Shown one piece after another: positions 38,859 to 64,000 of a stretch of 64,000 nt of DNA. Positions within the stretch are counted from its first letter, which is position 1. Every line of letters starts with the position of its first letter. A program made the translations under genes and the position numbers. The stretch is from an uncultured Dehalococcoidia bacterium (GTDB lineage Bacteria > Chloroflexota > Dehalococcoidia > Lucifugimonadales > UBA3495), in NCBI GenBank assembly GCA_951813535.1, contig OX638345.1:2823158-2887157 (forward strand), written 5' to 3'. The notes under the pieces were generated by a model that was not told where the DNA came from, did not search any database, and saw nothing but the letters and a program-made list of their open reading frames with translations.

Positions 38859-39020
38859 TCGAGCCCCGTCTGCTTCATCGAGTCAGACGGTAAGCGCTGG
38901 ACGCCGATTAAGAATCATACCAGACCTGCAATTGTCGATCGGTAGGTGGACGACCGGCGCGTTGCCCACGGTCCGATCCGTGTGTACACTGCCGGAAGTT
39001 TTTGCGTTGAGGAGCACAAT

Positions 39021-40067
39021 ATGGATTTCGCCTTGTTTTCCCATATACCCTGGCCGGAAGAACATACGCCGCGAGCGCTCTTTTCGGATTTGTTAGAGCA
39101 GGCCGTGGCCGGCGAGGAAATGGGTTTCAAGGCTATCTGGTTGGCCGAGCATCATTTCACCCGCTACGGCTTGGGGGCCTCCTCGCTGGTGATCGCCAGC
39201 AATATCGCGGCCCGGACCGATAGAATACGGCTCGGGACTGCGGTTCTGATACCGCCCCTGCATCACCCGGTACGGCTGGCGGAAGACACCGCTACGCTGG
39301 ATATCCTGAGCGATGGCCGGCTGGACGTCGGGTTCGGGCGAGGCGCCTCGAGTTCAGAGTACGGCAACTTTGGCGTAGACCACGCCGAGAGCCAGGCTCG
39401 CTACCGCGAGACTATCGAGATGGTGGAAACCCTCTGGACGACTCGCGACTGCACTTTCGAGGGCGAGTACTACGCTACGGAGCGCCTCAACCTGGTGCCC
39501 ACGCCCTTGCAACGACCGCACCCGCCGGTCTATGTGGCGGCAACACGCAGCGCCGAGTCGCTGGAATTCGTATCTTCCACCGGAAGACGGCTGATTATTG
39601 GCGTCGTCCTCAACACAGACGACGCCATGGAATTGCTGCAGCGTTTCCTGACGCAGGCTCAGGCCAGCGGCCACGCTGCGACAGCTTCAGACGTCCCATT
39701 CTTTCGCTATTTTTACGTGGCTGAAACTGAAGAACAGGCCCACCGCGACGCCCGCGACGCCCTGAACTGGACGTTGGACATCAATACGTGGAGGCGCGAG
39801 TTTTCGGTTGGGAGCGAGGTATACGACAGCATCCAGGATTACCGTGAACGCAGGACAGAATTGCCGCCTTCCTACGAGTATCTGGCCGAGCACCGGGCAT
39901 TCATCGGCACCCCGGATCAGTGCGCCGCCAAGATACAGGCCCTTCATGACGCCGGGGTTCGCTACTTCGGCTGCAATTTCGCTTTCGGAGGCTTGGATCA
40001 GAAAAAGCAGTTGCGCTCGATGGAACTTTTCGCGCGGGAAGTGATGCCTAGATTCGTCGACCAGTAG
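39021..40067 (+). CDS. LLM-class flavin-dependent oxidoreductase
   Basis: GFKAIWLAEHHF and LDILSDGRLDVGFGRG motifs. ATG at 39021 follows GAGGAG. Confidence 0.88.
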   Translation: MDFALFSHIPWPEEHTPRALFSDLLEQAVAGEEMGFKAIWLAEHHFTRYGLGASSLVIASNIAARTDRIRLGTAVLIPPLHHPVRLAEDTATLDILSDGRLDVGFGRGASSSEYGNFGVDHAESQARYRETIEMVETLWTTRDCTFEGEYYATERLNLVPTPLQRPHPPVYVAATRSAESLEFVSSTGRRLIIGVVLNTDDAMELLQRFLTQAQASGHAATASDVPFFRYFYVAETEEQAHRDARDALNWTLDINTWRREFSVGSEVYDSIQDYRERRTELPPSYEYLAEHRAFIGTPDQCAAKIQALHDAGVRYFGCNFAFGGLDQKKQLRSMELFAREVMPRFVDQ

Positions 40068-40077
40068 ACTGTGCGGG

Positions 40078-41748: not shown

Positions 41749-42928
41749 TTATCGCCATGGCCGTGGACGGCGACGTCACGTCGGAGAGTATGCCCACGCC
41801 GAGGCTGGCCAGGACCAGGAACCCCCGATCGAAGCTTTGCAAGCTGGTCATCCGCCCGCGCAGGCTGTCGGGCGCCAGCGTCTGGATCAACGTGCCCCGC
41901 GCAGTTCGGAAAACCGCCTGGCTGAACGCCATCGCCGCAATGAACACGAATGCCAGCGCCATCCACTTGGCAAACGCGAAAAACAGCAACGTGACCGAAC
42001 TGGCGACTGCTGCGCCCAGGACAACTTTCCCTTCGGGGAAAATAAATCCGAACGACGCCATGATCAGCGCGGCCAGCAGGCCGCCGACTCCGGTCACCGC
42101 CAGCAGATAACCGCCCACGTCCGCGTCCCGCTTCAACACTTCGGTGGTAAACACAGGAAACAGGAACCATGCGGGGTGCAGGATGATATTGGGGATGATC
42201 GACAATATCATCATTTGGAAAAAGGCTCGCTCTCCGCTCCAAACATAGCGCAACCCCTCGATCATGTTGGAAAACGCGGAACCCCGCTGGCGAGCATCTC
42301 CTAGTCGATGAAAAGGAGTGCGCACTCGGAAGATCATCGCGACATTCACCAGGTAGAGGCAGGCCTCAATGGTGAAGTTCCAGAAGAACCCCAGTGTGAA
42401 GATCAGGATCCCTCCGACGAACGGACCAACGATGCGCGTGCCGGTGATGGTCAACACATTGGTCGCCAGAGCGTTGCCCAGCATGTTCCTCGGCACGGTT
42501 CCGGCGATCAACGCCTGGCGCATTGGCTGCACCGTGGAATGACAGCATCCCGCGAGGATCACATACAGGTAGGCGTGCCACACCTGCACCTTTCCGGACA
42601 AGATCAATAAGGCAAAGGAAAGGGCCAGCGCCGCCATCACGGTTTGGAGGACAATCACCAGCCTGCGCCGGTCGAACCTGTCGCTCAGCACACCACCCCA
42701 GGGTCCGACAATCAGCCCGGGCAGCGTGTTGATCCCGCCTACCGTCACGACCAATAGACCAGCGATGTTTGAGCCTTCGGATAACTCGCGCACCAGCCAG
42801 CCCACGCTCAGAAGCTGAAGCCACTGCGCGTTGTTGGCAAAGAAATTACCGAACCATAGATAGCGGAAGTCCCGGTAGGCCAACCAGGCGTCCAGAGTGT
42901 GCAGCCGGGGCAGCCGCGCAGATCGCAA
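41678..42928 (-). CDS. MFS transporter (MFS_3/EntS-like)
   Basis: YRDFRYLWFGNFF and GVLSDRFDRRRL motifs. TTG start follows GAGGGA. Confidence 0.84.
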   Translation of the reverse strand: MRSARLPRLHTLDAWLAYRDFRYLWFGNFFANNAQWLQLLSVGWLVRELSEGSNIAGLLVVTVGGINTLPGLIVGPWGGVLSDRFDRRRLVIVLQTVMAALALSFALLILSGKVQVWHAYLYVILAGCCHSTVQPMRQALIAGTVPRNMLGNALATNVLTITGTRIVGPFVGGILIFTLGFFWNFTIEACLYLVNVAMIFRVRTPFHRLGDARQRGSAFSNMIEGLRYVWSGERAFFQMMILSIIPNIILHPAWFLFPVFTTEVLKRDADVGGYLLAVTGVGGLLAALIMASFGFIFPEGKVVLGAAVASSVTLLFFAFAKWMALAFVFIAAMAFSQAVFRTARGTLIQTLAPDSLRGRMTSLQSFDRGFLVLASLGVGILSDVTSPSTAMAIIAALGLGASGICWAFLGRVRRLD

Positions 42929-42949
42929 AACGTGTCCCTCTGTGGCCGC

Positions 42950-44206
42950 CTATCGCAGCGCCCGTACTCGCCGCAGCGTCGCAAAACATCCAAGGGTGAC
43001 TGTAAGACCCAGACAGCCCAGGGCTAATATCGCCATCGAGGCGGATGTGAAGTCGGCGAAAATGCCCACGAGCACGCTCACACCGACCAGGAAAGAGCGC
43101 TCGTAGGCCAACAGGGCCATGGTGCGCGCGCGGAACCGGTCGGGCACTATGGTCAGGACCAACGTCCCCTGAGTGGTTCGGAAGTAAGCCTGGAAAAACG
43201 ACTGGGCAGCCAGCACGGTGAAAGCCGCCGGAAGCCATGACGAGAAGGCGAACAGCATAGTGGCGATTGAAGAGAGCGCCGCCGCTCCAAACAGGATGTA
43301 ACCGCGCCGGAAGGGGAGGCCCCAAGTGGCGATGGTCAGGGTTGACAGCAAGCCACCCAGTCCGGTTATTGCCAGCAGGTAACCGCCCATGTTGACGTGG
43401 GCCTGCAGCACTTCCACTGTGAACAACGGAAGCAGAAACCAAACAGGGTGCAGGATGGTATTCGGAATTACGGACAGCACGGCTATTTCCAAAACTTCGC
43501 GCTGGTTCCGCCATAGGTGGACGAGGCCGTCCTTGATGTCTCCCAGCGGGGTGAAACGCCGTTGATCCTCCGCGGGTTCAGTCCCGGTGTGCGGTGTCCG
43601 CATGGGCAGTAACATCAAAACGACACCCAGGTACAGCGCCGCTTCCAAGGCAAAGTTCCAGAAATACCCCAGGGTGAATATGAGGAGTCCGCCGACGAAG
43701 GGACCGAAAATCCGAGTTCCGGTGACGGTAAGCGTGTTGATCGCGTAGGCGTTGACCAGCGCATCCCGAGGTACGGTGTTAGAAATCAGCACCTGCTGCA
43801 ACGGTTGGGTGATGGCGAGGCAAGAACCGGAAATCAGAACGTAAGCGTAGGCGTGCCAGGCACGCACGTAATCGGTGGCGACCAGGAAAGCGAAGCCTAA
43901 AGCCAACACGGCGCTGACAGATTGCAGTGCGATCGCCAGCTTGCGACGGTCCAGGCGGTCGCCCAGCACTCCGGTTATGGGGTTGATCAGCAGTCCGGGT
44001 AGCGTGTTGATCGCGCTGACCGACAGTACCAACAAACCGCCAATCCCGGAGCCGACAGATAGATCCTTGACCAGCCATCCGATGCTCAGGAGTTGCAGCC
44101 ATTGGCCCGTGAACCCACAAAAATTGGCCAGCCACAACAGCCGGAAGTCCCGGTAGGCCAGCCAAGCGTCCAGGGTATGCAGACGCGGAAGTCTTAGCGA
44201 CGGAAT
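42950..44206 (-). CDS. MFS transporter (MFS_3/EntS-like), tandem paralog, probable non-canonical ATT start
   Basis: The track ORF starts at TTG 44137. The 23 upstream in-frame codons (IPSLRLPRLHTLDAWLAYRDFRL) align with the paralog N-terminus (MRSARLPRLHTLDAWLAYRDFRY). GAGAGAG lies 7 nt before ATT 44206. Confidence 0.75.
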   Translation of the reverse strand: MPSLRLPRLHTLDAWLAYRDFRLLWLANFCGFTGQWLQLLSIGWLVKDLSVGSGIGGLLVLSVSAINTLPGLLINPITGVLGDRLDRRKLAIALQSVSAVLALGFAFLVATDYVRAWHAYAYVLISGSCLAITQPLQQVLISNTVPRDALVNAYAINTLTVTGTRIFGPFVGGLLIFTLGYFWNFALEAALYLGVVLMLLPMRTPHTGTEPAEDQRRFTPLGDIKDGLVHLWRNQREVLEIAVLSVIPNTILHPVWFLLPLFTVEVLQAHVNMGGYLLAITGLGGLLSTLTIATWGLPFRRGYILFGAAALSSIATMLFAFSSWLPAAFTVLAAQSFFQAYFRTTQGTLVLTIVPDRFRARTMALLAYERSFLVGVSVLVGIFADFTSASMAILALGCLGLTVTLGCFATLRRVRALR

Positions 44207-51318: not shown

Positions 51319-54153
51319 TCACGCCGCCAATTCAACCCGACACGGCTCGAGGTGTAAACCCGGAACGCGGGCCATGGGATTGATATCCTCGGAGGCCTGA
51401 AGTTCGACGGCTAACTGACCGAACAAGGTGGTGATCGACACTACACCCGGCGGGACGGCCGGGTCCAGGTACGCGAGACCGGTGATCCGATTGCTTGCGG
51501 TCACGACGGCCACAGCCGCTTCATTGGAGATGCCCCAAGCGGTTGCATCCGCCGGATTGACACTCACCTGCTCGTCGCGCACGATGCGATTCAGCTGCCC
51601 CGATTCGACCGTGATATCTCTTTCACTCTGCAAAAGGACCCGGCCTGGAGCGAAGACGGCAGGCAGGTCAGGTTCGGTAACCATCGAAACTGCGCGGAAC
51701 AGAGGGGCGCCTGGTTCGGCTTTTCCGTTGGGGAACCCGTTGGCGTACAGAACCGAGGTTGAGGGGCTTGCAGCGGTAGGGCAGGGCCACTGTATGCCAC
51801 GTTCTTCGCGCGTCGTGTACAGCAATTGGGTGGGCCTGGGAGCATCCACGCCCGTCTGCATCACCAATGCCGTTTCCTGTGCCAACCGTTGATAGCTGAT
51901 ACCCCCGTAGTTCGGAGCTATCGAAGCTATTTCGTCCATGACCCGGGCGGGTTCGTCGTAGTTCATGCCATCCATATCCAACCGGCGGGACAGCTCGGCA
52001 AATATCCATCCTTCCGGCATGGCGTCGTTGTTGCGGACGGTGATCGCGGGCCGGACGCGCTGGACACGGCGCTCCAAGTTAGTGAGCGTGCCTTCTTTTT
52101 CTGCGATTGTGGCCCGCGGCAGAACAACATCGGCGACCTGAGCCACCGGGGACAGGAAAGTGTCCACAACCGCGAGAAATTCCAGCTGTTCGAATGCCGC
52201 CAAATCGCTGCCGAGAAGGCCGTTGGAATAGTTCGGGCTATCGCCGATCACCAGCATGGCGTTGACGCTGCCGCCTGCCGATGCGAGCATGGCCGCAGCG
52301 CCCTTGCCGGCCGAGGACGGCAGCGACGTTCCCCAAGCGGCCTCCACGCGCACCCGGTGGGCGTCGTCAAACGTGGGGGCTCCACCAGGGAGGCGATCAG
52401 GCAGGCAACCCACATCGATGGCTCCCTGTCCATTGGCGCCCTGTCGCATCGGGATTATCCCGCCCGACGGCTGGTCCACGTTGCGGGTGAGCAACGCCAA
52501 GTCGGCCAGAGCGACCACGCATTCACGGGTGATTTCGTTGGGCAGATTGTCAAGGCCGTAGACGATGGCCGCAGTGTCCGCCGCGCCATACATCCTGGCA
52601 GCGCGGGCGATGTCTTCAAGGGGAACCCCCGTCGCAGCAATGGTGTCGTCGTCCAAGCGTTCCAATTCGTAAACCAGGGTGTCGTAACTGTCCGCGTGTT
52701 CAGCGAGCCATGCGCCGTCGATGTAGTCTTCCTGAAACACCTGTTTCAGAATCGCTCCCAAAAGCAGCAACTCTGTGCCAGGCACTGGCCGTAGCCACAG
52801 ATCGGCGTACCGAGTTAGCTCCACCTCGCGCGTATCGATGACGATCAGCGGCGTACCGTTGCGGGCGGCGCGCTTGATCGGAACGCCCACCACATTGTGG
52901 CTTTCGGTCAGGTTCGTGTTGAACACCAGGATGCAGCCGGCCTTTTCCAAATCCCAAATGGAGTTGGTGGCCCCGGGGTAGCCGAGGACATCTTCCAGGG
53001 CCCCGGTGAGGGCGGGCTGCGTGTTGCCAGAATGATCGATATTGTTCGTGCTCATCCCGACGCGGGCGAATTTTTGGGCCAGGTAGAGCTCCTCGTTGGT
53101 GCTGTCCGGCGCGGTGATCAGACCGAAACCCTCTCCCGTCTGATGGGGCCGGAGCCGTTCGGCAACCAGATCCAGAGCCTCTTCCCAAGTGGCATTTTCC
53201 AGACGGCCGTTGCGACGTATCATGGGGCGGCGCATGCGCTGTCCGCTGGTCAGATGGCCCAGGCCGAACTTCCCCTTGTAGCAAGCCTGGCCGCGGTTGG
53301 CGGGAGAGTTGAGTTCAGGAATGGCACGGATCACCCGGCCTTGCTCGTTGATTTCCAGGTTCATCTGACAGCCGACGGGGCAGTGCGTGCAGACGGTGCG
53401 CTCCACCCGGGCGGCCTTTTCCCATTTGCCCTCTCGCTCGGTCAGGGCGCCGACGGGGCAAACGTCAATGCACGCGCCGCAGAACTCGCAGCCCGACTCC
53501 AGTAGAGACGTACCGAATGAGGTGCCTACCAACGCATTGCCGGACCGCTCGGTGAAGCAGATGGCGTTGTCACCGCGCACTTCTTCGCAGGCTCGGACAC
53601 AGCGCCCGCAAGTGATACACAGATTGTAGTCGCGATCATAGAATGGGTCGCTGACCTCCAAGGGGATATCGCGGTACATATAGGTCATGGGCGATTCGAG
53701 CTCCATCCCTAAGTACCGTACGGTGTCCTTGAATTCGCAACGCTCGTTCTTGGGACAGGTGATGCAACGATCGTTCACCGAGACGTGCCGCAGGCAGACG
53801 TCTGATGGTCCGCAGATGTCGACTCGGTGGCAAGTGAGGCAGCCGTTGGGGTGCTCGGCGATGAGCATCTGCATGACGGAGCGGCGTAGCTCTATGACAT
53901 CGGGCGTTTCGCTCCACACGGTCATGCCGTCGGTGGCTGCCAGGGTGCAGGCGGCCGGGAACCCCGGTACGCGTCCTCGCTCGTTTTCCGCGACCACCAC
54001 GCACATCCGGCACGCGGCATAGGGCTTCATACCCGAGTGGTAGCACAGGTACGGCACGTAGACGCCGGCATCGATGGCGGCTTCGAGCACCATCTTCCCG
54101 GGCTGGGTCTTGATTTCCACCCCGTCGATTGAGATGGTGATATCGTCAGGCAT
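51319..54153 (-). CDS. NuoG/Nqo3-like Fe-S plus molybdopterin-oxidoreductase-fold subunit
   Basis: N-terminal 2Fe-2S (CYHSGMKPYAACRMC) and several 4Fe-4S motifs, then an MopB-type domain. ATG at 54153 (the track ORF has 31 extra codons). Confidence 0.86.
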   Translation of the reverse strand: MPDDITISIDGVEIKTQPGKMVLEAAIDAGVYVPYLCYHSGMKPYAACRMCVVVAENERGRVPGFPAACTLAATDGMTVWSETPDVIELRRSVMQMLIAEHPNGCLTCHRVDICGPSDVCLRHVSVNDRCITCPKNERCEFKDTVRYLGMELESPMTYMYRDIPLEVSDPFYDRDYNLCITCGRCVRACEEVRGDNAICFTERSGNALVGTSFGTSLLESGCEFCGACIDVCPVGALTEREGKWEKAARVERTVCTHCPVGCQMNLEINEQGRVIRAIPELNSPANRGQACYKGKFGLGHLTSGQRMRRPMIRRNGRLENATWEEALDLVAERLRPHQTGEGFGLITAPDSTNEELYLAQKFARVGMSTNNIDHSGNTQPALTGALEDVLGYPGATNSIWDLEKAGCILVFNTNLTESHNVVGVPIKRAARNGTPLIVIDTREVELTRYADLWLRPVPGTELLLLGAILKQVFQEDYIDGAWLAEHADSYDTLVYELERLDDDTIAATGVPLEDIARAARMYGAADTAAIVYGLDNLPNEITRECVVALADLALLTRNVDQPSGGIIPMRQGANGQGAIDVGCLPDRLPGGAPTFDDAHRVRVEAAWGTSLPSSAGKGAAAMLASAGGSVNAMLVIGDSPNYSNGLLGSDLAAFEQLEFLAVVDTFLSPVAQVADVVLPRATIAEKEGTLTNLERRVQRVRPAITVRNNDAMPEGWIFAELSRRLDMDGMNYDEPARVMDEIASIAPNYGGISYQRLAQETALVMQTGVDAPRPTQLLYTTREERGIQWPCPTAASPSTSVLYANGFPNGKAEPGAPLFRAVSMVTEPDLPAVFAPGRVLLQSERDITVESGQLNRIVRDEQVSVNPADATAWGISNEAAVAVVTASNRITGLAYLDPAVPPGVVSITTLFGQLAVELQASEDINPMARVPGLHLEPCRVELAA

Positions 54154-54203
54154 GGCGATTCCTAGTCGAAAATAGAGCAGCGGCGAGATCAGGCGGCGGC
54201 TGA

Positions 54204-55961
54204 TCAGCGGCGAGTGAGGCGCGGCGAGAACACCTGGTCGGGACAATCACCGGTGTGCCGCTTTTCGCGAATGTGAGCGTCGAATTCGTGGCCAAAATAC
54301 CGGAGAGCGGACGACACCGGGTTGAACCCCAGCTGCCCGTGTCCGCACAGGGAACCGGCCTGCATGTTTTCGCCGATGTTGCGCATCAGCGCCAAGTCTT
54401 CCTCGGTGCCCTCGAGATTGCTGATGCGTTCCAAAACTTCGAGCAGGTGGCTCATACCCATGCGGCAGGGGAAGCACTTCCCGCAGGATTCGTACTGGCA
54501 AAAAGCGATGAGATTGCGCGTCAGGTCCACCACGCACGTATCCTCGTCAGCAACGATTATCCCGCCCGAGCCCAGAATGGCGCCGGCGGCGCGGAAGACG
54601 TCGAAATCGAGCACCAAGTCCAGGTTGGCGTCGCTGGCGGAAAGGACGCCTCCCAGCGGGCCGCCCGTCTGGAGCACTTTCATGGTCTTGCCGTTGGGAA
54701 CGCCACCGGCCATATCGAAGAGCACCTGGCGCAGGGTCATTCCCAGCGGAACTTCAATCAAGCCGGTGTAGGTGATATCTCCGGACAAGCACAGGATCGC
54801 GGTGCCGCTGCTTCCGTTGATCCTATTGTCCGGGTCGGGCTGGGTTCCGATACCGGCGAACCACTCCCCACCACGCGCCACGATCTCGGGCACGTACGCG
54901 AGCGTCTTGACGTTGTTGATGTTCGACGGCTTGCCGAAAACTCCCACCTGGGCGGGGAAAGGAGGTCGGTAACGGGGCATCGAGCGCTTGCCCTCGATGG
55001 CCTCCATCAAGGCCGTCTCTTCGCCGGAAACGTACGAGTCCCCGGTCAAGGCGACCTCGACGTCGAAGGAAAAATCGGTCCCCAGGATATTCTGGCCCAG
55101 GAGACCGAGATCGTAGGCCTGCTGGATGACGGCGCGAGTACGGTCGATAGGTTGGTTGTGGCCGTGCCGAATAAAGATGTAGCCGCGGTTGGCGTTGCAG
55201 GCGTATCCCGCAATGGTGATGCCTTCCACCACGGTTGCCGGATCGCTCTCCAGGATGCCCCTATCATTGAAAGCGCCCGGATCACCTTCCTCGCAGTTGC
55301 ACAGGATGTACTTGTTGGGATCAGGGTTGCCGGCCAGAAATCCCCATTTGATGCCGGCCGGGAAGGCCGCGCCGCCGCGACCACGGAGCCCGGAGGTCCG
55401 AACCTCGCCGAGCGTGGCTTCCGGGGTTATCTCGGTGAGCGCCTTGTTCAAGGCAGCATATCCGCCGTTGGCGATGTACTGGTGGAGGTCCGAGGGATCG
55501 ATGTTGCCGGCATTGCGCAGGGCGATGCGCTGCTGCAGGGCCATCATCGGGTGGTCTGCAAGGTTCGGAATTCCCGGAGGCGCCTGCGCCTGGGTGCCGA
55601 GGTAACCGATGGCGTGTTCCGCCAGCGGGTCGCCGCCGGCCACATGCTCACGCACGATGCGCTCGGCAAGTTCGGGCGTGACCTGGCTGTAGAACACCCG
55701 TGGCCCGCCTGGAGTCTGGACGTCCAGCAACGGCTCCGCGAAGCACAGGCCCAACGTACCGACCTCGGACACGTTGGCTGCCACCTGATGCTGTTCCAAG
55801 GCTGCTTTTACAGCGGCGACGACCTCGAACCCGCCAGCAGCTTCGCCGGCCAACCCGGTACCGACACGAATCCACGGCCGATCACCCGCGGTCAGGTTAT
55901 CCCAGCGGCGCCTCGCCTCTTCGAGGATGGCGTTGAAGGAGGATTCCGTCTGCACAGTCAC
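54204..55961 (-). CDS. NuoF-like NADH-binding flavoprotein subunit with N-terminal thioredoxin-like extension
   Basis: GLRGRGGAAFP, CNCEEGDPGAF and ESCGKCFPCR...LCGHGQ motifs. Confidence 0.9.
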   Translation of the reverse strand: MTVQTESSFNAILEEARRRWDNLTAGDRPWIRVGTGLAGEAAGGFEVVAAVKAALEQHQVAANVSEVGTLGLCFAEPLLDVQTPGGPRVFYSQVTPELAERIVREHVAGGDPLAEHAIGYLGTQAQAPPGIPNLADHPMMALQQRIALRNAGNIDPSDLHQYIANGGYAALNKALTEITPEATLGEVRTSGLRGRGGAAFPAGIKWGFLAGNPDPNKYILCNCEEGDPGAFNDRGILESDPATVVEGITIAGYACNANRGYIFIRHGHNQPIDRTRAVIQQAYDLGLLGQNILGTDFSFDVEVALTGDSYVSGEETALMEAIEGKRSMPRYRPPFPAQVGVFGKPSNINNVKTLAYVPEIVARGGEWFAGIGTQPDPDNRINGSSGTAILCLSGDITYTGLIEVPLGMTLRQVLFDMAGGVPNGKTMKVLQTGGPLGGVLSASDANLDLVLDFDVFRAAGAILGSGGIIVADEDTCVVDLTRNLIAFCQYESCGKCFPCRMGMSHLLEVLERISNLEGTEEDLALMRNIGENMQAGSLCGHGQLGFNPVSSALRYFGHEFDAHIREKRHTGDCPDQVFSPRLTRR

Positions 55962-55976
55962 GAGGCGGTCTGCCTT

Positions 55977-56456
55977 TCAGTGCGCGGGGTTGGAGGATAG
56001 CGCCGCCGCGATTCGTGACCGCGCGACGTCCGGGGTGATACGGCCGGCGAGATGATGGTTGATTGCCATCACCGGAGCGTGAGCGCAGGCTCCCAGGCAC
56101 GTGTTGTAGTGGAGGGTTGCTTTCCCGTCGGGCGTATCGCCTTCGTCAGAAAGTCCCAACGACTCCTGAGCCGCCGCGATCACTGCGGTCGCGCCCATCA
56201 CATGGCAAGACGGCCCCCAGCAGACCTCGACCCGGATGTCGGTGGGCGGCTCAAACCGGAAGTTCGGATAGAAGGTGGCTACCGCCCAAACATCGTTGAC
56301 GGTAGCGTCCATCCGGGCGGCAACTGCTTCCACCGCTTCGGTCGGGATGTAACCGATGGCGTCCTCGATTGCCAGCAGGGACGAAAGGACGGTGACCGTG
56401 CTCTGTGGCTGGTCGTTTACCGCCCGATCAATGAGCTGAAGAGTGCCATCATCCAT
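55977..56456 (-). CDS. NuoE-like thioredoxin-fold [2Fe-2S] subunit
   Basis: VCWGPSCH and CLGACAHAP motifs. Confidence 0.9.
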   Translation of the reverse strand: MDDGTLQLIDRAVNDQPQSTVTVLSSLLAIEDAIGYIPTEAVEAVAARMDATVNDVWAVATFYPNFRFEPPTDIRVEVCWGPSCHVMGATAVIAAAQESLGLSDEGDTPDGKATLHYNTCLGACAHAPVMAINHHLAGRITPDVARSRIAAALSSNPAH

Positions 56457-56559
56457 TTGTGAAATCCGTTACAAATCCCGATTTGAACGGCGCGAGTTTA
56501 GCACAATGGCCGGAACACCGGCAACGCAAAGATAACCCATCCGCCGGGAGAAACGGTGT

Positions 56560-57216
56560 TCAGTTTTCGCCGGCCTCGCGATTTTCCAAAGCCTTGTCCA
56601 TCACACGCTGGAAAACCTCGTAAGGTTGGGCGCCACTGAAAAGCAGGTTGTCGAAAACGAAGGTCGGTATCCCACGGATGCCGTAGCCCAAGGCTTCGTG
56701 ATACTGGTCAACCACTTTCTGCGCATAGTGGCCCGATTCCACGCGTTCGCGCAGCTCGCCGCCATCAAGGCCGACGCGGGAGCCGATGTCAGCCAGAACC
56801 GACGGATCTCCGAGATCGGCCCCGTTGTCCCAATACGCCTCGTAAGCGGCGTGGTGGTACTCGAGGAATTTGCCCTGTTCCTGGGCGTACTCGGTCGCCT
56901 GGAGGGAGTACAGGCTGTTTGGAGTGTGCTTCGGCGGCCGCATCACCAGGTTGGCCTCCCGCGCATAGGTCCGGAGGGGGTCGGCCAGCTCGTCATCGGA
57001 TTCCCCGGAGCGGGCCTCGCGTACGCGGCCCTCCTGCGGCGTGTCGGGGCGCAAAAGATAGGCTCGGCCCTCGACGGTGATGTCGTATTCTTCCGCAAGT
57101 TTGTCGACGCGCTCAAGGCCGACATAGCACCAGGGTCAAATATAGTCGTACCACACGATCACATGAACGGGATTGGGGTCGTCCGGATGGCTGTGGGCCG
57201 GCGGCTGGGTGGTCAT
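56560..57216 (-). CDS. DsbA/FrnE-family thiol oxidoreductase, candidate selenoprotein (TGA 57136-57138 read as Sec, U-P-W-C motif)
   Basis: ATG 57216 lies 4 nt after AGGAGA. The translation runs MTTQPPAHSHPDDPNPVHVIVWYDYI-[TGA]-PWCYVGLERVDKLAEEYDITVEG... and ends ...GIRGIPTFVFDNLLFSGAQPYEVF. The two track ORFs (57136..57582 and 56560..57054) share a frame and are separated only by this TGA. Confidence 0.72.
57102..57124 (-). promoter_or_regulatory. SECIS-like hairpin 11 nt downstream of the TGA
   Basis: mRNA UGUCGGC-CUUGAGCGC-GUCGACA: a 7-bp stem (one G-U pair) with a 9-nt loop. Confidence 0.4.
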
Positions 57217-57280
57217 GACATCTCCTGTATGGGTAGCACGGTCCGAGGTCGGCGCGGATTTCGCGGCGAGAGGCTGTCGG

Positions 57281-57991
57281 CTAGCAGGACACCAAACGGT
57301 CCAGCAGGGGGTACAGGCCTTCCAGGCTGTCGATATGGTCGCAATCCACCACGTCGGCATGAAAGCCGCCGCGGTCGATAAGGACAGGGAGGAGGCCAGC
57401 ATCTCGTGCGCCCTGGACATCAGATTTCGGTTGGTCGCCGACGTGTATGGCTTGTTCGGGGCGCAACGCCATACGCTGGAGAGCCGCCTCAAAAATAGCG
57501 GTGGCAGGTTTTTCGCCAGCCTCGCGACTGGTGATGCAGAACTCCAGGTATTGGCGAATCCCCAGCCGCTCGGTGAGTTCATTCATATCCCGACGCAGGT
57601 TGGTCAGGACAGCCAACCTGTAGCCGCGACTGTTCAGCTCTTTCAATACCGAACGGGTTTCTTCGAACTCCACCAGTTCTTTGGGCACGGATATCGCCAT
57701 ATCCCAGATCTGCTTGGCCATGCGCAGAGACACGGCAACCCCCGATTCCTCGAGGATGATCTGTTCGTAGCGGGCGAAGAATTCGTCGCGGGCGGCGGTG
57801 TCGCGTTCACCCAGTGGCCAACGATGATTTTCCTCGTTGAAATAGAGATCGGCGACGGCATAACCGCCGGCCAGCCGGTCGGCGGGTACGCGTATGCCCA
57901 GGTTCTGGCAGGCGGCGTGCTGGATCTGCGGCAACGGCGGCCAGAAACGCACCAGGGTGTTGTAAAAGTCGAAAAAGACGGCCTCAATCAT
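57281..57991 (-). CDS. HAD family hydrolase (subfamily IA-like)
   Basis: FFDFYNTLV (a DxYxT motif I variant, as seen in haloacid-dehalogenase-type members), LTN, a K-P motif and VGDQPKSDVQGA. Confidence 0.82.
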   Translation of the reverse strand: MIEAVFFDFYNTLVRFWPPLPQIQHAACQNLGIRVPADRLAGGYAVADLYFNEENHRWPLGERDTAARDEFFARYEQIILEESGVAVSLRMAKQIWDMAISVPKELVEFEETRSVLKELNSRGYRLAVLTNLRRDMNELTERLGIRQYLEFCITSREAGEKPATAIFEAALQRMALRPEQAIHVGDQPKSDVQGARDAGLLPVLIDRGGFHADVVDCDHIDSLEGLYPLLDRLVSC

Positions 57992-58145
57992 CTGTAGGAA
58001 GCGCAGAAAGGGCGTTCATTTTCGCCGGGCGGCCCAACGCTGCGCAGGCCAATGATAGCACAACGCATGAGGCGTGGCCCGGGGGAGGCCGGTGTCTGAC
58101 CGGACAACAATCGCGATTGTCGGGCGGTCGGGCACAGGTTGATGT

Positions 58146-58922
58146 CTACAACGTTACCAGTTCGACGAGAGCGGCGGAGACCTCTGCCGGAGAGGCTAAT
58201 CGCCAGGTCGCGCAGGTACTGACCCCGGGCGCCCCCACGTATACTCCAATACCCCCAGCGGACCGGACTGCGCCGAAAGCATCTTCGTCGGTTGCGTCGT
58301 CGCCCATGTAGATGGGGAAAGACTTTGGGGACAACCGAGATCGGATCAACGTGAGGGCTCTGCCCTTGTTCCAGTCGATCGACGGGCGAAGTTCCAAAGC
58401 CATCTTGGCTTCGGTGACATGGCAAAATCCAGACTGGACCAATGGATGGGCAATATCGTCAAACGTGGACACGACCCGGTCGTGATAGTAAGGCGGAGTT
58501 TGCCGGAAATGCGTAGTGAGGGTGTAGGTCTTGTTTTCGACGAAAGCGCCGGGCACACCTGCCAAACGGAGTTCCAGATCGTGGGACGCCTCGCTGATGG
58601 TTCGGGACGCAGCCTCAGCATCGGGGTGGCGGTAATCCATTCCGAGGCCGCGTATCTCCAGGCCATGGTTGCCGGCGTACACCAGGCCCGGAACGTTCAC
58701 CCGCGCCTCGACGTCCTGCAGAGACCGTCCGCTGATCACTCCGACCACGAACTCGGGACGCTCGACGAGTTGGCAGAGCAGTGACTGATTCCCAGGGCAC
58801 AGGGTGGCCTGTTCAGGCCGGGGAGCGATTTCTGATAGGGTCCCGTCGAAATCGAGAAGGAGCAGGATGGGGTCCCGCCCGATGACCAGGTCTTTCAGTT
58901 CGTCGAGGTTGAGATCGAGCAT
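58146..58922 (-). CDS. otsB: trehalose-phosphatase
   Basis: LLLDFDGTLSEI and YMGDDATDEDAF motifs. ATG at 58922 lies 11 nt after the otsA stop. Confidence 0.84.
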   Translation of the reverse strand: MLDLNLDELKDLVIGRDPILLLLDFDGTLSEIAPRPEQATLCPGNQSLLCQLVERPEFVVGVISGRSLQDVEARVNVPGLVYAGNHGLEIRGLGMDYRHPDAEAASRTISEASHDLELRLAGVPGAFVENKTYTLTTHFRQTPPYYHDRVVSTFDDIAHPLVQSGFCHVTEAKMALELRPSIDWNKGRALTLIRSRLSPKSFPIYMGDDATDEDAFGAVRSAGGIGVYVGAPGVSTCATWRLASPAEVSAALVELVTL

Positions 58923-58933
58923 GGGGATGGGCT

Positions 58934-60442
58934 CTATGCCGTGGTCGCAATAGTGAGGCGGGAGTGGTCGGGGGTGCTCGCCTGCATGAGGTGCATCATG
59001 ATGCGGCCGGCCCATTTGTAAATGTTGTTTTCGCGGACCGTGTTGCGCATCTGGCGCATCCGGATGCGGCGCTCCGCGCCACTCATGGTGAGGGCCTGGT
59101 GAATGGCTTCGGCGAACTGCTCGGTGGCGTAGGGGTTGATTATGAGCGAGCCGGTGAGTTCCTGGGCGGCCCCGGCGAAAGCGCTGAGGATGAGCACGCC
59201 ATCCTCATCGACACGGGAAGCCACGTACTCCTTGGCCACGAGGTTCATGCCGTCGTGGAGGCTGCTCTCGGCGCAGAAACTGGCGAGACGGCGCAGCGCC
59301 GAAAAAGTCACCGAGGGCAGGGAAGTAGGCCAATAGAGTACCGGCTGCCAGCCGTCGTGGCCGAAACGCTCGTTGATGCGGTTGACGGTGGCCTCGATGT
59401 CTATGGTCAGCTGCATGTACGAGTCGATGTTGGTGCGACTGGTGGCTCCGGCTTGGAGGAACACCAACTGCCCGCGGTACTGGGGCCATTTCTCAAACAG
59501 ACGCTCGACGGCTCGGAGGCGATGGGGGATGCCCTTGGTGTAGTCCTGCCGGTCGATGCCCAGGCCAAGGATGCGACCGCGGTTCAATCCCAATTGCCGG
59601 GAAAGGCGGGCCATTTCGGCTTCAACTTCATCGGATCTGGCCTCGGCGTCGAGACTGTCGAAATCGATGCTGATGGGGAATGGACGCACCAGGGTGGTCT
59701 CGTCCCTGTAGTCGATGAGGCCGTATTCGGAATCGACGTGAGCATCCAGGTTCGCATCAACGCAGTTGAGGAAGTTCTGACAGTCTCCGGAGAGGTGGAA
59801 GCCCAGGAGATCGTTGCCCAGCATGCCGTCAAGAATTTCGTCCTGCCAAGGGCAAATCCGCAAGATGTCTGGATTGGGCCACGGAATATGCCAGAACTGC
59901 CCGATTATGGCATCCGGATTGACCTCACGGATGTATCTGGGGAGGAGGGCCAGATGATAGTCCTGGATCAGAACGATGGCCGGCTCGTCGTTGATTTCGT
60001 CGAGCACCAGGTCCGCGAAGCGCCGGTTCACCGACTGATAGAAGCCGTAGTGCTCCGCGTCGAAAACCGGCTCTGTGTAGGCGATGTGGCACAGCGGCCA
60101 CAGGCCCTCGTTGGCGAAGCCATAGTAAAAGCCCTGGTTCTCTTCTTTGCTCAAGCTGAGCAGCCGCATGGAGTAAGCGGGATCGTCGGTAGGCACGTGG
60201 ATACGGCCCGACGCATCCATGGCGGCACGATCATCATCACCGTCACTCTGGGCGATCCAGGTACCGCCGCAGGCGCGCATCAGCGGATCGATAGCCGCAG
60301 TCAGCCCGCCCGGGGGCATTACCCCGTGGGGCACACCGTCCAGCATCGTAAACACGTACGGCTGCCGATTTGACACCACGACCAGCCGATAGTCGCTCAA
60401 TTCCCGGCCTACCAAGCGCTGTAAATCATCGCCGGTCCACAT
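58934..60442 (-). CDS. otsA: alpha,alpha-trehalose-phosphate synthase (GT20)
   Basis: VVVSNRQPY, GFYYGFANEGLWPLCH, IQDYHLALLP and DGMNLVAKEY motifs. GGAGG RBS. Confidence 0.92.
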   Translation of the reverse strand: MWTGDDLQRLVGRELSDYRLVVVSNRQPYVFTMLDGVPHGVMPPGGLTAAIDPLMRACGGTWIAQSDGDDDRAAMDASGRIHVPTDDPAYSMRLLSLSKEENQGFYYGFANEGLWPLCHIAYTEPVFDAEHYGFYQSVNRRFADLVLDEINDEPAIVLIQDYHLALLPRYIREVNPDAIIGQFWHIPWPNPDILRICPWQDEILDGMLGNDLLGFHLSGDCQNFLNCVDANLDAHVDSEYGLIDYRDETTLVRPFPISIDFDSLDAEARSDEVEAEMARLSRQLGLNRGRILGLGIDRQDYTKGIPHRLRAVERLFEKWPQYRGQLVFLQAGATSRTNIDSYMQLTIDIEATVNRINERFGHDGWQPVLYWPTSLPSVTFSALRRLASFCAESSLHDGMNLVAKEYVASRVDEDGVLILSAFAGAAQELTGSLIINPYATEQFAEAIHQALTMSGAERRIRMRQMRNTVRENNIYKWAGRIMMHLMQASTPDHSRLTIATTA

Positions 60443-60808
60443 AACGGGCCACCTCCGTCTTCGGGTGCGCCTCGCAGTATGAAGAAATTATGCACTGCAA
60501 AAACTATAATTATTATTATCAGGCATGAATTGTGCCACAGGAGAACCATCCGGTCAATGACCAAAACCGCTCACGCGCACCCATTTGCTCACCAGGAGGA
60601 GCGTAGCGATTTGTTGACCCTGATGGCTGAGGGGTGTTCGCCCCACAATGAGATTGCCTCGCTGAGTTCGCAATGACGGCGGTTTGTTTTCACGGTCCGG
60701 ACGGATATAGGCCGCGATGATGGTTTCTTGGACAGACTGGCTGCGCATAGATGCGGCCCCGCAGGATTTACGGGGCCGGGGAACGGGGACGGGTCACCGC
60801 GCGAGCGA

Positions 60809-61636
60809 TTATTCGTCGCGGATGCGGTTGTACATGGCGAGGGGAGTGGCGGCGAGGAGGCCGGCGTCTACGGGCAGGACGACCCCGGACACCCAGCGCG
60901 CCTCGTCGCTGGCGAGGAACAGGGCGGCGTAGGCGATGTCCCAGGCGTTGCCCTCGACTCCCAGGGGGCCGGCCTTGCGGCGATTTTCGCGGGTTTCTTC
61001 GGCCATGGCGCCGGCGACCATGGGAGTGTAGATGTGGCCCGGGGCAATTACATTCACGCGGATGTTGTCGCGGCCCAGGTGGACCGCCATCGTCTCCGAC
61101 ATGCCGATGACGCCGGACTTGGATGCAGAATAGGGGATACTGGCAAGACCGCTTCCGGCGCGGACGCCGGCAATGGACGACATGTTGATGATGCTGCCGC
61201 CGCCGGCGTCGATCATCTTGGGCGCAGCGTACTTGGTGGTGAGCATCATGCTCTTGAGGTTCACATCGAGGACGTTGTCCCAGACACTCTCCTCCACATC
61301 GGTGGGCGTGCCGGGGCCGGTGATGCCGACGTTATTGAAGAGCACGTGCAGGCCACCGTAACGGTCTACGGCGGCGGCGACTATGGCCTCACAGTCGGCG
61401 CCGGAGGTGACGTCGGCAGCGATTACGGACGCCTCTCCGCCCTCCTCATGGATGACGGCAAGGGTCTCTTCGGCGGCCTGAAGGTTGCGATCGACCAGCA
61501 GCACGCGAGCGCCCTCTCGGGCGAACAGAATTGATGCAGCCTTGCCGGTGCCAACACCGGGGCCACTGGAGCCGGCGCCGGTAACAATGGCGACTTTATC
61601 CTGCAGACGGGGTCGTCCGGATGGAAGGAGTGTCAT
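60809..61636 (-). CDS. SDR family oxidoreductase
   Basis: TGAGSSGPGVGTG, NNVG and YSASK motifs. Confidence 0.88.
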   Translation of the reverse strand: MTLLPSGRPRLQDKVAIVTGAGSSGPGVGTGKAASILFAREGARVLLVDRNLQAAEETLAVIHEEGGEASVIAADVTSGADCEAIVAAAVDRYGGLHVLFNNVGITGPGTPTDVEESVWDNVLDVNLKSMMLTTKYAAPKMIDAGGGSIINMSSIAGVRAGSGLASIPYSASKSGVIGMSETMAVHLGRDNIRVNVIAPGHIYTPMVAGAMAEETRENRRKAGPLGVEGNAWDIAYAALFLASDEARWVSGVVLPVDAGLLAATPLAMYNRIRDE

Positions 61637-61667
61637 GGGAACCTCCGATAATTTGTCGGGCGAATGA

Positions 61668-62234
61668 TCAGGAGGCGAGCGCAGGCTGTGGAGTGAGGAG
61701 CCAGTCCTGGGCCTGCTTGGCGGCGTCCGAGAGCCACTGGCCCATGATCGCCTCGCGCCCCTCGGGGATTTCGACTCCCAGGCCGTCAGCCAGGCGGTTC
61801 ATGAAGTTGAACACACAGGTGATGGCGACGGTGGACAGCACCTGCTGATCGGTGAGGCCCGTGGCACGCAGGCCGTCAATATCGGACTCCCGCATTAGAG
61901 CCGGGGTCAGGGTGAGTTTGACCGCGTAGTCGAGGATGGCGCGGGTCTGCGGGTCTAGGTCAGCCTGGGTGTAATCGTGGATGATGTGGCTGGAGTACTC
62001 GGGATCGTCAGAGTGTTGACGGAGGAACCCTCCGTGGGCCACGGCTCAATAACGGCAGCGGTTGACGAGGGACACCACCGTGGCGATGGCCTCTTCCTGG
62101 GTGCGGGTGAGCACTGAGGAACCGAAAGTGGCATTGGCGTTGAGGTTCTGCACAGCCGCCATCAGGTCCGGATTGATGGACATGCATTTGATAACCGCAG
62201 GCACCGCGGCGTCGGTTTCGCGGATCCAGGACAT
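61668..62234 (-). CDS. AhpD/carboxymuconolactone-decarboxylase-family peroxidase-related protein, candidate selenoprotein (TGA 62046-62048 read as Sec, C-R-Y-U motif)
   Basis: ATG 62234 lies 5 nt after AGGAGG. The translation reads ...EEAIATVVSLVNRCRY-[TGA]-AVAHGGFLRQ..., which matches the VSxxNxCxYCxxxH core of the family with the second Cys replaced by TGA. The track ORFs 62046..62234 and 61668..62042 share a frame. Confidence 0.78.
62019..62035 (-). promoter_or_regulatory. SECIS-like hairpin 10 nt downstream of the TGA
   Basis: mRNA ACGGAGG-GUU-CCUCCGU: a perfect 7-bp stem with a GUU loop. Confidence 0.5.
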
Positions 62235-62276
62235 GAGGACCTCCTATAGGGATGCGCAGGGCTAATGCCCCAGCCA

Positions 62277-62675
62277 TCAGCTGCCGGTTGGGGTCTGGGT
62301 TACGATGGCCATCTTATGTTCAGCAGTCCCGAGCAACAGACCGCCGTGGTGAACCTCCACCTCGAAACGGAGCTTGTTGCCGGACACGTCGGTGAGAACG
62401 GAGCGCGCGGTGGCGACCGCACCGGCATCCGCCGGGGCCAAATGTTTGACGTTGACCTCGTAGCCGACGACCGTTTGATCCGGATGGAGCAGAGACAGGA
62501 CAGCTTGGTACGAGGCCTGCTCCATGAGCATGACCATTGCCGGGGTGCTGAACTTGGGAGTATGGGGAGCCAGGTGTTCAGCGGCGACGGTCAATTGAGT
62601 TTCGCCTGCCAGACCGGGCCGGATGGCCGGGTCTATGGGCAGGCGAGACGGTTGCGAGGTACCCGGAGTCGCCAT
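62277..62675 (-). CDS. hotdog-fold thioesterase (FlK-like)
   Basis: FSTPAMVMLMEQASYQAV and VGYEVNVKHLAPA motifs. ATG at 62675 lies 25 nt after the upstream stop. Confidence 0.72.
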   Translation of the reverse strand: MATPGTSQPSRLPIDPAIRPGLAGETQLTVAAEHLAPHTPKFSTPAMVMLMEQASYQAVLSLLHPDQTVVGYEVNVKHLAPADAGAVATARSVLTDVSGNKLRFEVEVHHGGLLLGTAEHKMAIVTQTPTGS

Positions 62676-62700
62676 GGCGGCGGCCCGGAAACGCGGTTGT

Positions 62701-63261
62701 TTAGGCGGCCACGGGCTGGCCGACCAGGATGGACTCCACCTCGTCGGCGATCTCGGCGGCGCGGGCCTTGACCTCATCGTCGTTGAGGCTGGACAGGGGA
62801 TGCTGCGCGACCACATAACGATAGTCGGGCACACCCATCATGCGGGTCATGGCCTGGGCAGTGTTGAGGAAAACGTGGGTGATGATGGCCGCGGTTGGGA
62901 CGCCGCGCTTCTCGAAATCGATGCCGTCGTGCACACTGCACGAGCTGCAGGACCCTCAATCCCCGACCCCGGTGATGAGGTAGTCGACCTCACCGAGGAT
63001 GGAGTCGATGGTGTCCTGCTTGGCCGGCAGGCTGGCGTGACCCTTGTCGTAGTACTTGATCTCGGAGAAACCGTGGCGTTCGTTGAGGATGTTGCCGAGT
63101 TCATGAAGGAGCTTGTCCGCGTTGGCCTTGGAGTTTTCCATGAGGCCGAGGCGCTTCCCGGCGAGGCCGGCAGAGCGGTCGTTCATGTGGAACTCGGACT
63201 GGGGCAACTCGGTGCCCCTGGGGTTGACGAGCCTGAGGCGGCTCGATTCGGCGGTTGTCAT
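62701..63261 (-). CDS. UGSC-motif protein, candidate selenoprotein (TGA 62956-62958 read as Sec, U-G-S-C-S-S-C)
   Basis: ATG 63261 lies 6 nt after GGAGG. The translation reads ...EVDYLITGVGD-[TGA]-GSCSSCSVHDGIDFEKRGVPTAAIITHVF.... The track ORFs 62956..63261 and 62701..62934 share a frame. UxxCxxC resembles the GrdB-type redox motif (from memory). Confidence 0.7.
62927..62943 (-). promoter_or_regulatory. SECIS-like hairpin 12 nt downstream of the TGA
   Basis: mRNA UCGUGCA-GUG-UGCACGA: a perfect 7-bp stem with a GUG loop. Confidence 0.5.
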
Positions 63262-63384
63262 GGGTGACCTCCGTAGATTCTGGCGTGTCGGCGGGATGAG
63301 CTATGTGAGCGGATTGTACCGTCAAATGACGGCTTTGCGTAACCCCTGGTGAGAGAACGGTTGACGTATCCGATCTCTTGGTTC

Positions 63385-64000
63385 CTAGTTGGCGGAGATT
63401 TTGCGGGTGCGAATGCGGTAGCCGGTGGTGTCGATGATGGCGCTGTAGCGGCCGCCGGTTCCGCCGCCGTGCATGATGAGGATGTCGTCGGGGTCGTTGG
63501 CGCAGCGCATGATCAGTTCCTCGTCCCCGGGGCGTTCGGGTCCCTGCTTGGAGCCGAGGCGGACGAGTTCGGCGCGGGAGCGGCCGCTGTTCTCGATGAG
63601 GAAATCCTGCATATCGCGGCGGGTCCAGCCGCCATCCTGCAGGGTGAGAGCGTGCTCAGGCCCGATGACGATGACCCACTGGGCCGGATAACGGTGGGCC
63701 AAGGCGGCGGATCGCAGGGCGTCGCAGATGGAGAGCAGAATGGCTCGTCCGTCGTGGGCGTAGCTGTTGGGAACGCTGACGGGGTTGTAGGCGACGGCGA
63801 CGGTTACCACGCTGTCGGAGGCATCGAAGCCGCGACTGACGTGGAGTGGTTCCCAGGGGGACGTCTCCTCGTTTTCGGCGATGCAAAAGGTGTACTTGGC
63901 CGGGGTGCCCAAGGTGCCGCGGTCCAACTGGCCGGGCCAGGCGTCGAAGCCGTTCATGAAGCAGAGGCGAACGGCGCGGCCGATGCTGGCGTTGGCACGG
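63385..64000 (-). CDS. hypothetical protein, N-terminus outside window
   Basis: The frame stays open from 63957 to the window edge (RANASIGRAVRLCF precedes the first Met). No family recognised. First gene of the string that contains two TGA-recoded genes. Confidence 0.55.
   Translation of the reverse strand, partial: RANASIGRAVRLCFMNGFDAWPGQLDRGTLGTPAKYTFCIAENEETSPWEPLHVSRGFDASDSVVTVAVAYNPVSVPNSYAHDGRAILLSICDALRSAALAHRYPAQWVIVIGPEHALTLQDGGWTRRDMQDFLIENSGRSRAELVRLGSKQGPERPGDEELIMRCANDPDDILIMHGGGTGGRYSAIIDTTGYRIRTRKISAN

Follow-up and report, generated by a model that had tools for sequence, protein, structure and literature searches.

Probable selenoprotein genes with SECIS-like hairpins and a conserved UGSC gene cassette in an uncultured Dehalococcoidia bacterium

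In work of Liu and co-workers from 1998, the minimal selenocysteine insertion sequence (SECIS) of the E. coli fdhF gene was reportedly a 17-nt upper stem-loop located about 11 nt past the UGA codon. The selenoproteome from Global Ocean Sampling (GOS) metagenomes includes AhpD-like 1 (CxxU, 299 sequences), UGSC-containing (UxxC, 255) and DsbA 1 (UxxC, 63) proteins, where U is selenocysteine (Sec) (PMC2398784, Table 2), and a 2026 review lists the same families under TIGR01926, NF041046 and PF01323 (PMC13188914). The UGSC family was first catalogued from the Sargasso Sea and GOS metagenomes and is among the most abundant GOS selenoprotein families (PMC2398784); neighbouring selenoprotein genes have been described earlier for other family pairs. 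A stretch of 64,000 nt of contig OX638345.1 (GenBank assembly GCA_951813535.1) from an uncultured Dehalococcoidia bacterium, hereafter the window, carries on its minus strand one gene of each of these three types, and each is interrupted by an in-frame TGA. We consider it very probable that these are three intact selenoprotein genes in which UGA is decoded as Sec via SECIS-like hairpins. Because all three families are catalogued (PMC2398784, Table 2; PMC13188914), the genes are additional members of published selenoprotein families, not new families, in a lineage whose selenoprotein genes have drawn little notice; an earlier note on this DNA, made from the sequence alone, had named the AhpD-like and DsbA-like proteins as known ones. 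What goes beyond the catalogues is a conserved cassette around the UGSC gene, the proposed partnership of UGSC with an unannotated protein designated UNK, and a T fixed before the Sec-UGA.

Three genes interrupted at a redox-active cysteine

The three genes, the proposed Sec codons and the associated hairpins are located as follows.

56560..57216 (-), DsbA/FrnE-like gene, predicted selenoprotein; 218 codons including Sec, motif U-P-W-C, PF01323 across the TGA
57136..57138 (-), proposed Sec-UGA of the DsbA-like gene; context MTTQ...VWYDYI-U-PWCYVG, TGA in 71/71 distinct orthologues
57102..57124 (-), SECIS-like hairpin of the DsbA-like gene; UGUCGGC, 9-nt loop CUUGAGCGC, GUCGACA, beginning 11 nt past the UGA
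61668..62234 (-), AhpD-like (peroxidase-related enzyme) gene, predicted selenoprotein; motif C-R-Y-U, TIGR01926 across the TGA
62046..62048 (-), proposed Sec-UGA of the AhpD-like gene; context SLVNRCRY-U-AVAHGG, TGA in 42/42 distinct orthologues
62019..62035 (-), SECIS-like hairpin of the AhpD-like gene; 17 nt, ACGGAGG-GUU-CCUCCGU, beginning 10 nt past the UGA
62701..63261 (-), UGSC-family gene, predicted selenoprotein; motif U-G-S-C-S-S-C, NF041046 and PF24696 across the TGA
62956..62958 (-), proposed Sec-UGA of the UGSC gene; context ITGVGD-U-GSCSSCSVHDG, TGA in 79/79 distinct sequences
62927..62943 (-), SECIS-like hairpin of the UGSC gene; 17 nt, UCGUGCA-GUG-UGCACGA, beginning 12 nt past the UGA

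Translation of the minus strand through stops (56400-64000) gives a single in-frame TGA in each of the three genes. The upstream fragments start with ATG placed 5-6 nt behind AGGAG (DsbA-like), AGGAGG (AhpD-like) and GGAGG (UGSC), whereas the downstream fragments in the track of open reading frames (ORFs) start with TTG or GTG 27, 1 and 7 codons past the TGA and have no comparable Shine-Dalgarno sequence. The coordinates, motifs and start signals given in the earlier note all check out on the sequence.

Family models were matched to read-through proteins with Cys substituted for the TGA, and they run straight across each TGA, in agreement with the view that the ORF track splits intact genes. 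The DsbA-like protein matches PF01323 (DSBA) with 122.7 bits against a cut-off of 25.6 over residues 19-205, and the AhpD-like protein matches TIGR01926 with 129.8 bits (cut-off 81.8) over residues 7-154, as well as the TIGR00778 core domain (35.1 bits, cut-off 27.8). The UGSC protein, in which U-G-S-C occupies residues 102-105, scores 155.7 bits with NF041046, ‘UGSC family (seleno)protein’, and 192.8 bits with PF24696, the cut-offs being 125 and 25 bits.

In the DsbA-like and AhpD-like families, Sec would take the position of a Cys of the CxxC active site, presumably the attacking one. The U of the DsbA-like protein pairs in the Deinococcus FrnE structures 5cnw and 5cp1 with the Cys that opens CPWC, as in the DsbA-like form 1 (PF01323, UxxC), with which the protein shares the DSBA domain. 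That of the AhpD-like protein pairs with the second Cys of CxxC in structures 2pfx and 6k40, the position of Sec in AhpD-like 1 (TIGR01926, CxxU). The U of the UGSC protein is Cys (GVGD-C-GSCS) in 12 full-length homologues of about 185 aa with 35-45% identity, and U-G-S-C falls in the same column as in the family NF041046/PF24696; nothing essential separates the window clade from this family, the difference being that this clade has a third Cys (UGSCSSC) and is specific to Dehalococcoidia/SAR202. The proposal that each TGA sits at a redox-active Cys (UPWC, CRYU, UGSCSSC) is thus in accord with Cys-containing homologues or structures for all three proteins. Many of the UGSC matches in a search of 5.8 billion proteins are entries of about 102 aa with 50-92% identity, and all nine that were placed in the alignment (9/9) stop exactly after GVGD, while the best 120 database matches listed for the DsbA-like protein are all C-terminal fragments beginning past the TGA.

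The DsbA-like product is predicted to be a cytoplasmic FrnE/DsbA-like thiol-disulfide oxidoreductase; with FrnE of Deinococcus radiodurans (5cnw), structurally the closest protein, it appears to share a short N-terminus and the lack of an obvious signal peptide. The AhpD-like product is a predicted ‘peroxidase-related’ protein. A profile search of the PDB with the UGSC protein returned nothing significant. Its structure model (pLDDT 89) has a three-layer alpha/beta arrangement with Sec/Cys at the start of a helix following a strand, and the best PDB match is MsuE (TM 0.48), suggesting a flavodoxin-like fold and not a clear thioredoxin fold.

For a survey of relatives, the N-terminal half of UGSC was scanned against one genome per GTDB species, which gave 80 loci, and with the loci from metagenome assemblies a total of 89 was reached; a metagenome scan with the C-terminal part of the DsbA-like protein gave 80 further loci. 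TGA follows GVGD in 88 of the 89 UGSC loci (L057 is unresolved), corresponding to 79 of 79 distinct sequences including the window. It also follows CRY in all 42 distinct AhpD-like sequences from the UGSC loci and precedes PWC in all 71 distinct DsbA-like sequences, and neither TGC nor TGT occurs at the Sec position in any of these 79, 42 and 71 sequences, which range over roughly 50-98% protein identity. The frame past the TGA is conserved at about 50-99% protein identity with no further stops, and in the UGSC loci the tblastn matches pick up again 3 nt past the N-terminal match.

The genes might instead be pseudogenes, or the TGAs sequencing or assembly errors of TGC or TGT, in which case the split ORFs would be the true ones. 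Gene callers do split or truncate the three genes in the public records examined, so that redox inventories of SAR202/Dehalococcoidia and of sponge symbionts systematically miss or mis-size them, and the AhpD-like gene is truly decayed in two relatives, by an insertion in L047 and a deletion in L031. Against this explanation stand the identical TGAs in 79, 42 and 71 distinct sequences, which come from independent assemblies, long-read chromosomes included, and the conserved, stop-free downstream frames; we regard it as extremely unlikely.

A genome-wide reassignment of TGA to a sense codon, as in codes 4 or 25, is suggested by nothing beyond the in-frame TGAs themselves. TGA is the terminal stop of coding-like ORFs at 1263-1265, 21669-21671 and 33071-33073, as had been pointed out before, and it ends many others in the window, including the DsbA-like, AhpD-like and thioesterase genes; the code is therefore not reassigned. 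In-frame TGAs with coding flanks are confined to the three Cys-equivalent positions, and the likelihood of a reassignment is practically negligible.

The codon before the proposed Sec-UGA ends in T, being GAT in 79 of 79 UGSC, TAT in 42 of 42 AhpD-like and ATT in 62 of 69 DsbA-like sequences; in the window these codons lie at 62959-62961, 62049-62051 and 57139-57141 on the minus strand, respectively. The same amino acids elsewhere favour C-ending codons. The fixed T, which runs against the third-position (GC3) preference of the genome, may reflect a context that Sec decoding requires or that counters termination, and a T directly preceding UGA is a possible context rule.

Hairpins downstream of the UGA codons

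The published bacterial SECIS (bSECIS) model comprises a loop of 3-9 nt, a stem of 4-16 bp, a G in the first two loop positions, a distance of 16-37 nt from the UGA to the loop and a minimum free energy of at most -7.5 kcal/mol (PMC13188914, Fig. 2). The AhpD-like hairpin (7-bp stem, GUU triloop, -10.4 kcal/mol, loop 17 nt from the UGA) and the UGSC hairpin (7-bp stem, GUG triloop, -8.9 kcal/mol, loop 19 nt from the UGA) satisfy every one of these constraints, and as in the bSECIS consensus their apical loops start with G-U, so the two G-U-containing triloops noticed earlier are real. Like the fdhF element of E. coli, both lie within the coding sequence and are exactly 17 nt long, at 10 and 12 nt past the UGA, respectively; the window hairpins differ from it in having no sequence similarity and no bulged U, and their binding by SelB is putative. 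Together with their frozen silent sites, described below, they supply two clean, minimal 17-nt examples of a SECIS-like element.

The DsbA-like element is weaker and has a larger loop than the other two, with a stem of 5-7 bp, a loop of 7-9 nt and an energy of -8.1 to -8.9 kcal/mol, and its family-conserved core is limited to UCGGC/GUCGA. The family consensus, with the loop UGGAGCG and -10.8 kcal/mol, satisfies the bSECIS model. The single geometry that had been ascribed to all three hairpins thus holds for the spacing of 10-12 nt but only in part for the shape. An alternative DsbA-like structure proposed by RNAalifold, which pairs the UGA itself, was rejected as the main model: it leaves unexplained why the first GTC codon is fixed at its third position, and its stability is slightly lower (mean -5.0 versus -5.8 kcal/mol for the main model).

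A 7-bp stem with a 3-4-nt loop starting 9-13 nt downstream is found at 1.4% of window positions, and at 3.2% if loops of up to 8 nt are allowed. The position of the hairpins relative to the UGA is not due to chance. A scan of both strands of the window for an in-frame TGA with coding-like flanks and a hairpin of at least 7 bp at 10-12 nt returned the three sites and one other, at 16099-16097, which was discarded as a selenoprotein candidate, having a 10-nt loop and no protein-level support; no fourth selenoprotein gene was found by this window-wide scan.

Silent sites within the hairpins are nearly frozen. Hairpin codons have a mean synonymous-codon entropy of 0.08, compared with 0.99 for the conserved codons that flank them (pooled Mann-Whitney p = 5e-9; p <= 0.0015 per family), the values for the three families being 0.02, 0.10 and 0.14 in the hairpins and 0.92, 0.91 and 1.26 in the flanks. 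In UGSC, the hairpin codons TCG TGC AGT GTG CAC GAC are identical in the 79 sequences except for one CAC>CAT change, while codons just outside the hairpin vary (GGG/GGC, TCC/TCT/TCG/AGT, AGC/AGT, GGA/GGC, ATC/ATT). The AhpD-like codons CAC GGA GGG TTC CTC CGT are near-invariant in 42 sequences, with CTC>CTT as the sole change, and in the DsbA-like family GTC, GGC and CTG, together with the second GTC, are fixed at 97-100%, with variable codons for Glu and Arg in the loop. The three types of substitution seen in the stems (CAC>CAT, CTC>CTT and GTC>GTT) each retain a G.U pair. The evidence for constraint at the RNA level is purifying selection that acts on silent sites and does not involve covariation.

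Conservation of the hairpins could also arise from constraint on the protein or on codon usage, the hairpins being by-products of the motifs SSCSVHD, HGGFLR and VGLERVD. The peptide motifs in which the stems lie are indeed the most conserved ones, and compensatory double changes are lacking; however, GGA and GGG are never swapped in 42 sequences and the Ser codons TCG and AGT are never swapped in 79, codon choice for these amino acids is free only a few codons away, and two Cys-type UGSC genes have no hairpin in the same register (-2.8 and -2.2 kcal/mol). An origin of the hairpins in protein-level constraint is very unlikely.

In the mechanism proposed here, the UGA would stand in for the codon of a redox Cys in each gene and would be read as Sec by the bacterial SelB/tRNA-Sec route, with a short hairpin located in the coding sequence (apical loop starting 17-20 nt past the UGA) acting as the SECIS element. 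The same mRNAs would end at ordinary stops, two of the three at an ordinary UGA without a hairpin.

Several observations count against Sec decoding. Whole-segment folding energies are not better than those of shuffled sequences (z = +0.4 to +1.0), a comparison that is uninformative because the DNA is GC-rich (61.5% GC); the z-scores were replaced by the positional background rate and the synonymous-site analysis given above. True compensatory covariation is absent from the stems because they are invariant. The Leu codon in the DsbA-like loop of the window is CTT (57115-57117, minus strand), shared with one close relative, instead of the CTG found in 69 of 71 sequences, and the resulting CUU drops the G at loop position 2 wanted by the bSECIS model. 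No Rfam family matches the hairpins, either at the gathering threshold or at E<=10. As to the machinery, ARAGORN and Rfam detected no tRNA-Sec, and no tRNA at all, in the 64 kb of the window, and Pfam detected no SelA, SelB or SelD domain in the ORFs of 0.4-11.6 kb and 29.8-64 kb.

The CUU loop, the lack of Rfam SECIS matches and the machinery not seen in the scanned parts of the window would all suit a read-through without selenium, with Cys or Trp supplied by a near-cognate tRNA and the hairpins acting as generic stimulators of read-through or pausing. Such a process would not account for the replacement of exactly the redox Cys by UGA, which is the signature of Sec, nor for the fit of the hairpin position and of G-U at the start of the small loops to the published bSECIS model, and all three families are catalogued as selenoprotein families. 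Moreover, a close relative with the same cassette has the machinery annotated: one of the UGSC loci (L037) is MPNC01000001 of SAR202 cluster bacterium bin87, which encodes the whole cassette at 90-97% protein identity, and for bin87 of the SAR202 clade (MPNC00000000) three SelA (COG1921) and one SelB (COG3276) matches are listed (PMC5649159, Table S4). Selenium-free read-through is distinctly unlikely. The use of Sec at the three genes, as proposed in the earlier note, is supported by the Cys/Sec pairs, the conservation of TGA and the frozen silent sites of the hairpins.

The UGSC cassette and the UNK protein

The UGSC and AhpD-like genes lie in a cassette with three further genes.

63385..64000 (-), UNK, unannotated protein of 342 aa, C-terminal 204 codons; the N-terminus lies past the window end, upstream of UGSC
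62277..62675 (-), FlK-type hotdog thioesterase gene; PF22636 (FlK, 85.3 bits) and PF03061, 25 nt past the UGSC stop
60809..61636 (-), short-chain dehydrogenase/reductase (SDR) gene; PF13561 and PF00106, last in the cassette, syntenic in about 55 relatives

Gaps of 25, 42 and 31 nt separate UGSC from the thioesterase, the thioesterase from the AhpD-like gene and the latter from the SDR, respectively, and UNK is 123 nt from UGSC. On the minus strand, a simple scan of 60809-63385 detected nothing resembling a promoter or a terminator. Most likely, UGSC, the thioesterase, the AhpD-like gene and the SDR form one transcript, although a caveat applies, as co-transcription is deduced solely from the spacing and the lack of consensus promoter or terminator matches.

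About 45 species-level genomes share the order UNK - UGSC - FlK thioesterase - AhpD-like (Sec) - SDR (tblastn against the loci), which supports a two-selenoprotein operon at 64000-60809 as suggested earlier, and in most close relatives the thioesterase lies between UGSC and AhpD-like/SDR. The AhpD-like gene is missing in L007-9, L020, L024 and L039, where the thioesterase abuts the SDR, and in L022 and L041, where extra sequence occupies the gap. In L047 it is decayed by a 1.5-kb insertion (L047:9137-10629) carrying a 453-aa ORF, probably a transposase candidate, with loss of the CRYU segment, and in L031 by an internal deletion (L031:9059-9250). The AhpD-like gene is a dispensable accessory, absent or decayed in about 10 related species, and its place in a UGSC-thioesterase-SDR cassette is what distinguishes it from AhpD-like 1 in general. 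In a more distant Sec-type clade, with 53-65% identity, nothing but the UNK-UGSC pair stays together; these two genes are the conserved core.

The DsbA-like gene is not part of this arrangement. It lies 3.6 kb from the cassette, behind genes for a HAD-hydrolase, a trehalose-phosphatase and a trehalose-6-phosphate synthase, and is kept near UGSC in only one of the 89 loci (L013), which does not bear out the idea that the three genes make up one selenoprotein cluster. Its proximity is incidental and unrelated to the UGSC transcript.

In some relatives DUF4058 (PF13267) genes stand between UNK and UGSC, one in L010 (L010:7122-7940) and two to six in L001-L006. The tandem copies in L001-L006 (about 4800-9900) are preceded by PaREP1-domain genes; the window is without such an insertion.

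UNK has its full length of 342 aa in L010 (6092-7120) and L011 (6849-7877). It matched nothing in Pfam, NCBIfam or PDB sequence searches. The family to which it belongs is very large: a word-indexed search gave more than 7,600 matches, and an exhaustive HMMER search gave 4,377 clusters at 50% identity. A Foldseek comparison of its AlphaFold model (pLDDT 74) with the PDB gave nothing significant (best E=0.017, TM 0.24), and a faint resemblance of the model to Toblerone-fold/RidA-like repeats is likewise not significant. The family has one invariant Cys, located in the N-terminal motif EEC[YF]RLGW[ST]DGLPVVPP.

UNK lies upstream of UGSC in 77 of the 89 loci. Next to two Cys-type UGSC genes lies a UNK homologue of 39-42% identity, upstream in one case and downstream in the other, with a 4-nt overlap between it and UGSC. 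Fusions of UNK homologues to a UGSC domain are found in P0345, P0351, P0372, P0379 and P0322; P0364 is a homologue joined to an AhpC/TSA domain, and P0401 one joined to a pyridine-nucleotide disulfide oxidoreductase. Because of this gene order, the translational coupling and the fusions, we argue from sequence that UNK and UGSC would work together. UGSC may act as the selenol redox partner of UNK, in a redox relay, or as its catalytic subunit. Whether the pair constitutes an undescribed, widespread two-component selenol/thiol redox enzyme found in marine Chloroflexota and in other bacteria is evenly balanced in our estimate. The recurrent coenzyme A (CoA)-ester context, namely the FlK thioesterase and the SDR in the cassette and the surroundings of the Cys-type loci, is a hint of a reductive step in organic-acid/thioester catabolism. 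For the UGSC family, which has had no known function since its cataloguing, UNK would offer a partner open to experimental tests.

Genes neighbouring the Cys-type UGSC-UNK loci (L170 and L171) encode a CoA-transferase (PF01144), an acyl-CoA dehydrogenase, a zinc-dependent alcohol dehydrogenase, an aldehyde dehydrogenase and a luciferase-like monooxygenase.

GrdB and PrdB, the selenoprotein B of glycine and proline reductases, carry a UxxCxxC-type motif and are paired with a second, larger protein encoded next door. By analogy, the UGSC protein appears to resemble them only in the U-x-x-C-x-x-C pattern and the adjoining larger protein. It has no detectable sequence relationship to them, and UNK matches no known family or fold. 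The suggestion that the UGSC gene is of GrdB type was dropped: a Pfam scan at E<=10 yields only PF24696 and noise, with no GrdB match, and UGSC is a family of its own.

The GOS paper of 2008 mentions a ‘UGSC/Unknown_1’ fusion (PMC2398784), and UNK is a candidate for this ‘Unknown_1’ domain.

Host lineage and other genes of the window

All 80 UGSC loci from the scan of one genome per GTDB species belong to metagenome-assembled genomes of Dehalococcoidia, SAR202 or Chloroflexota, several of them from sponges, as anticipated by the suggestion of a SAR202-like Chloroflexota host. The nearest loci are only 84-88% identical in DNA to the window, which therefore represents a distinct species of this Dehalococcoidia/SAR202/Chloroflexota-labelled clade, one that is not represented among the retrieved loci; an exact-sequence search with the 101-aa UGSC fragment of the window likewise gave no match. 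Its members come from metagenomes of Aplysina, Ircinia and other sponges, and also from sea water and lakes. ARAGORN found no tRNA-Sec in 169 loci (1.7 Mb), which is uninformative, the loci being small genome pieces.

The three genes provide gene-level evidence for the probable use of Sec by sponge-associated and marine SAR202-like Chloroflexota, a group that the 2026 selenoproteome review does not mention in its text (PMC13188914). Such use fits the enrichment of SelA and SelB in sponge symbiont bins (Slaby et al. 2017, PMC5649159).

The sole Rfam RNA in the window is a bacterial large signal recognition particle RNA at 4434-4695 (-), with 138.7 bits, and a gene for a putative Uma2-family endonuclease is located at 441-1265 (+). 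The region 29780-44137 encodes four MFS transporters in a run, an AcrB/HlyD efflux pair and a luciferase-like monooxygenase, a set that looks typical of SAR202 gene content.

A trio of genes at 51319-56456 (-) encodes NuoE-like (2Fe-2S), NuoF-like (FMN) and NuoG/FdhA-like molybdopterin proteins and resembles an NAD-linked formate dehydrogenase. The FdhA-like catalytic subunit of 975 aa (51319-54246) is encoded by an uninterrupted ORF and contains no Sec. From its listed TTG start, this ORF shares 43 nt with the end of the NuoF-like gene, and because of this overlap the true start probably lies further downstream.

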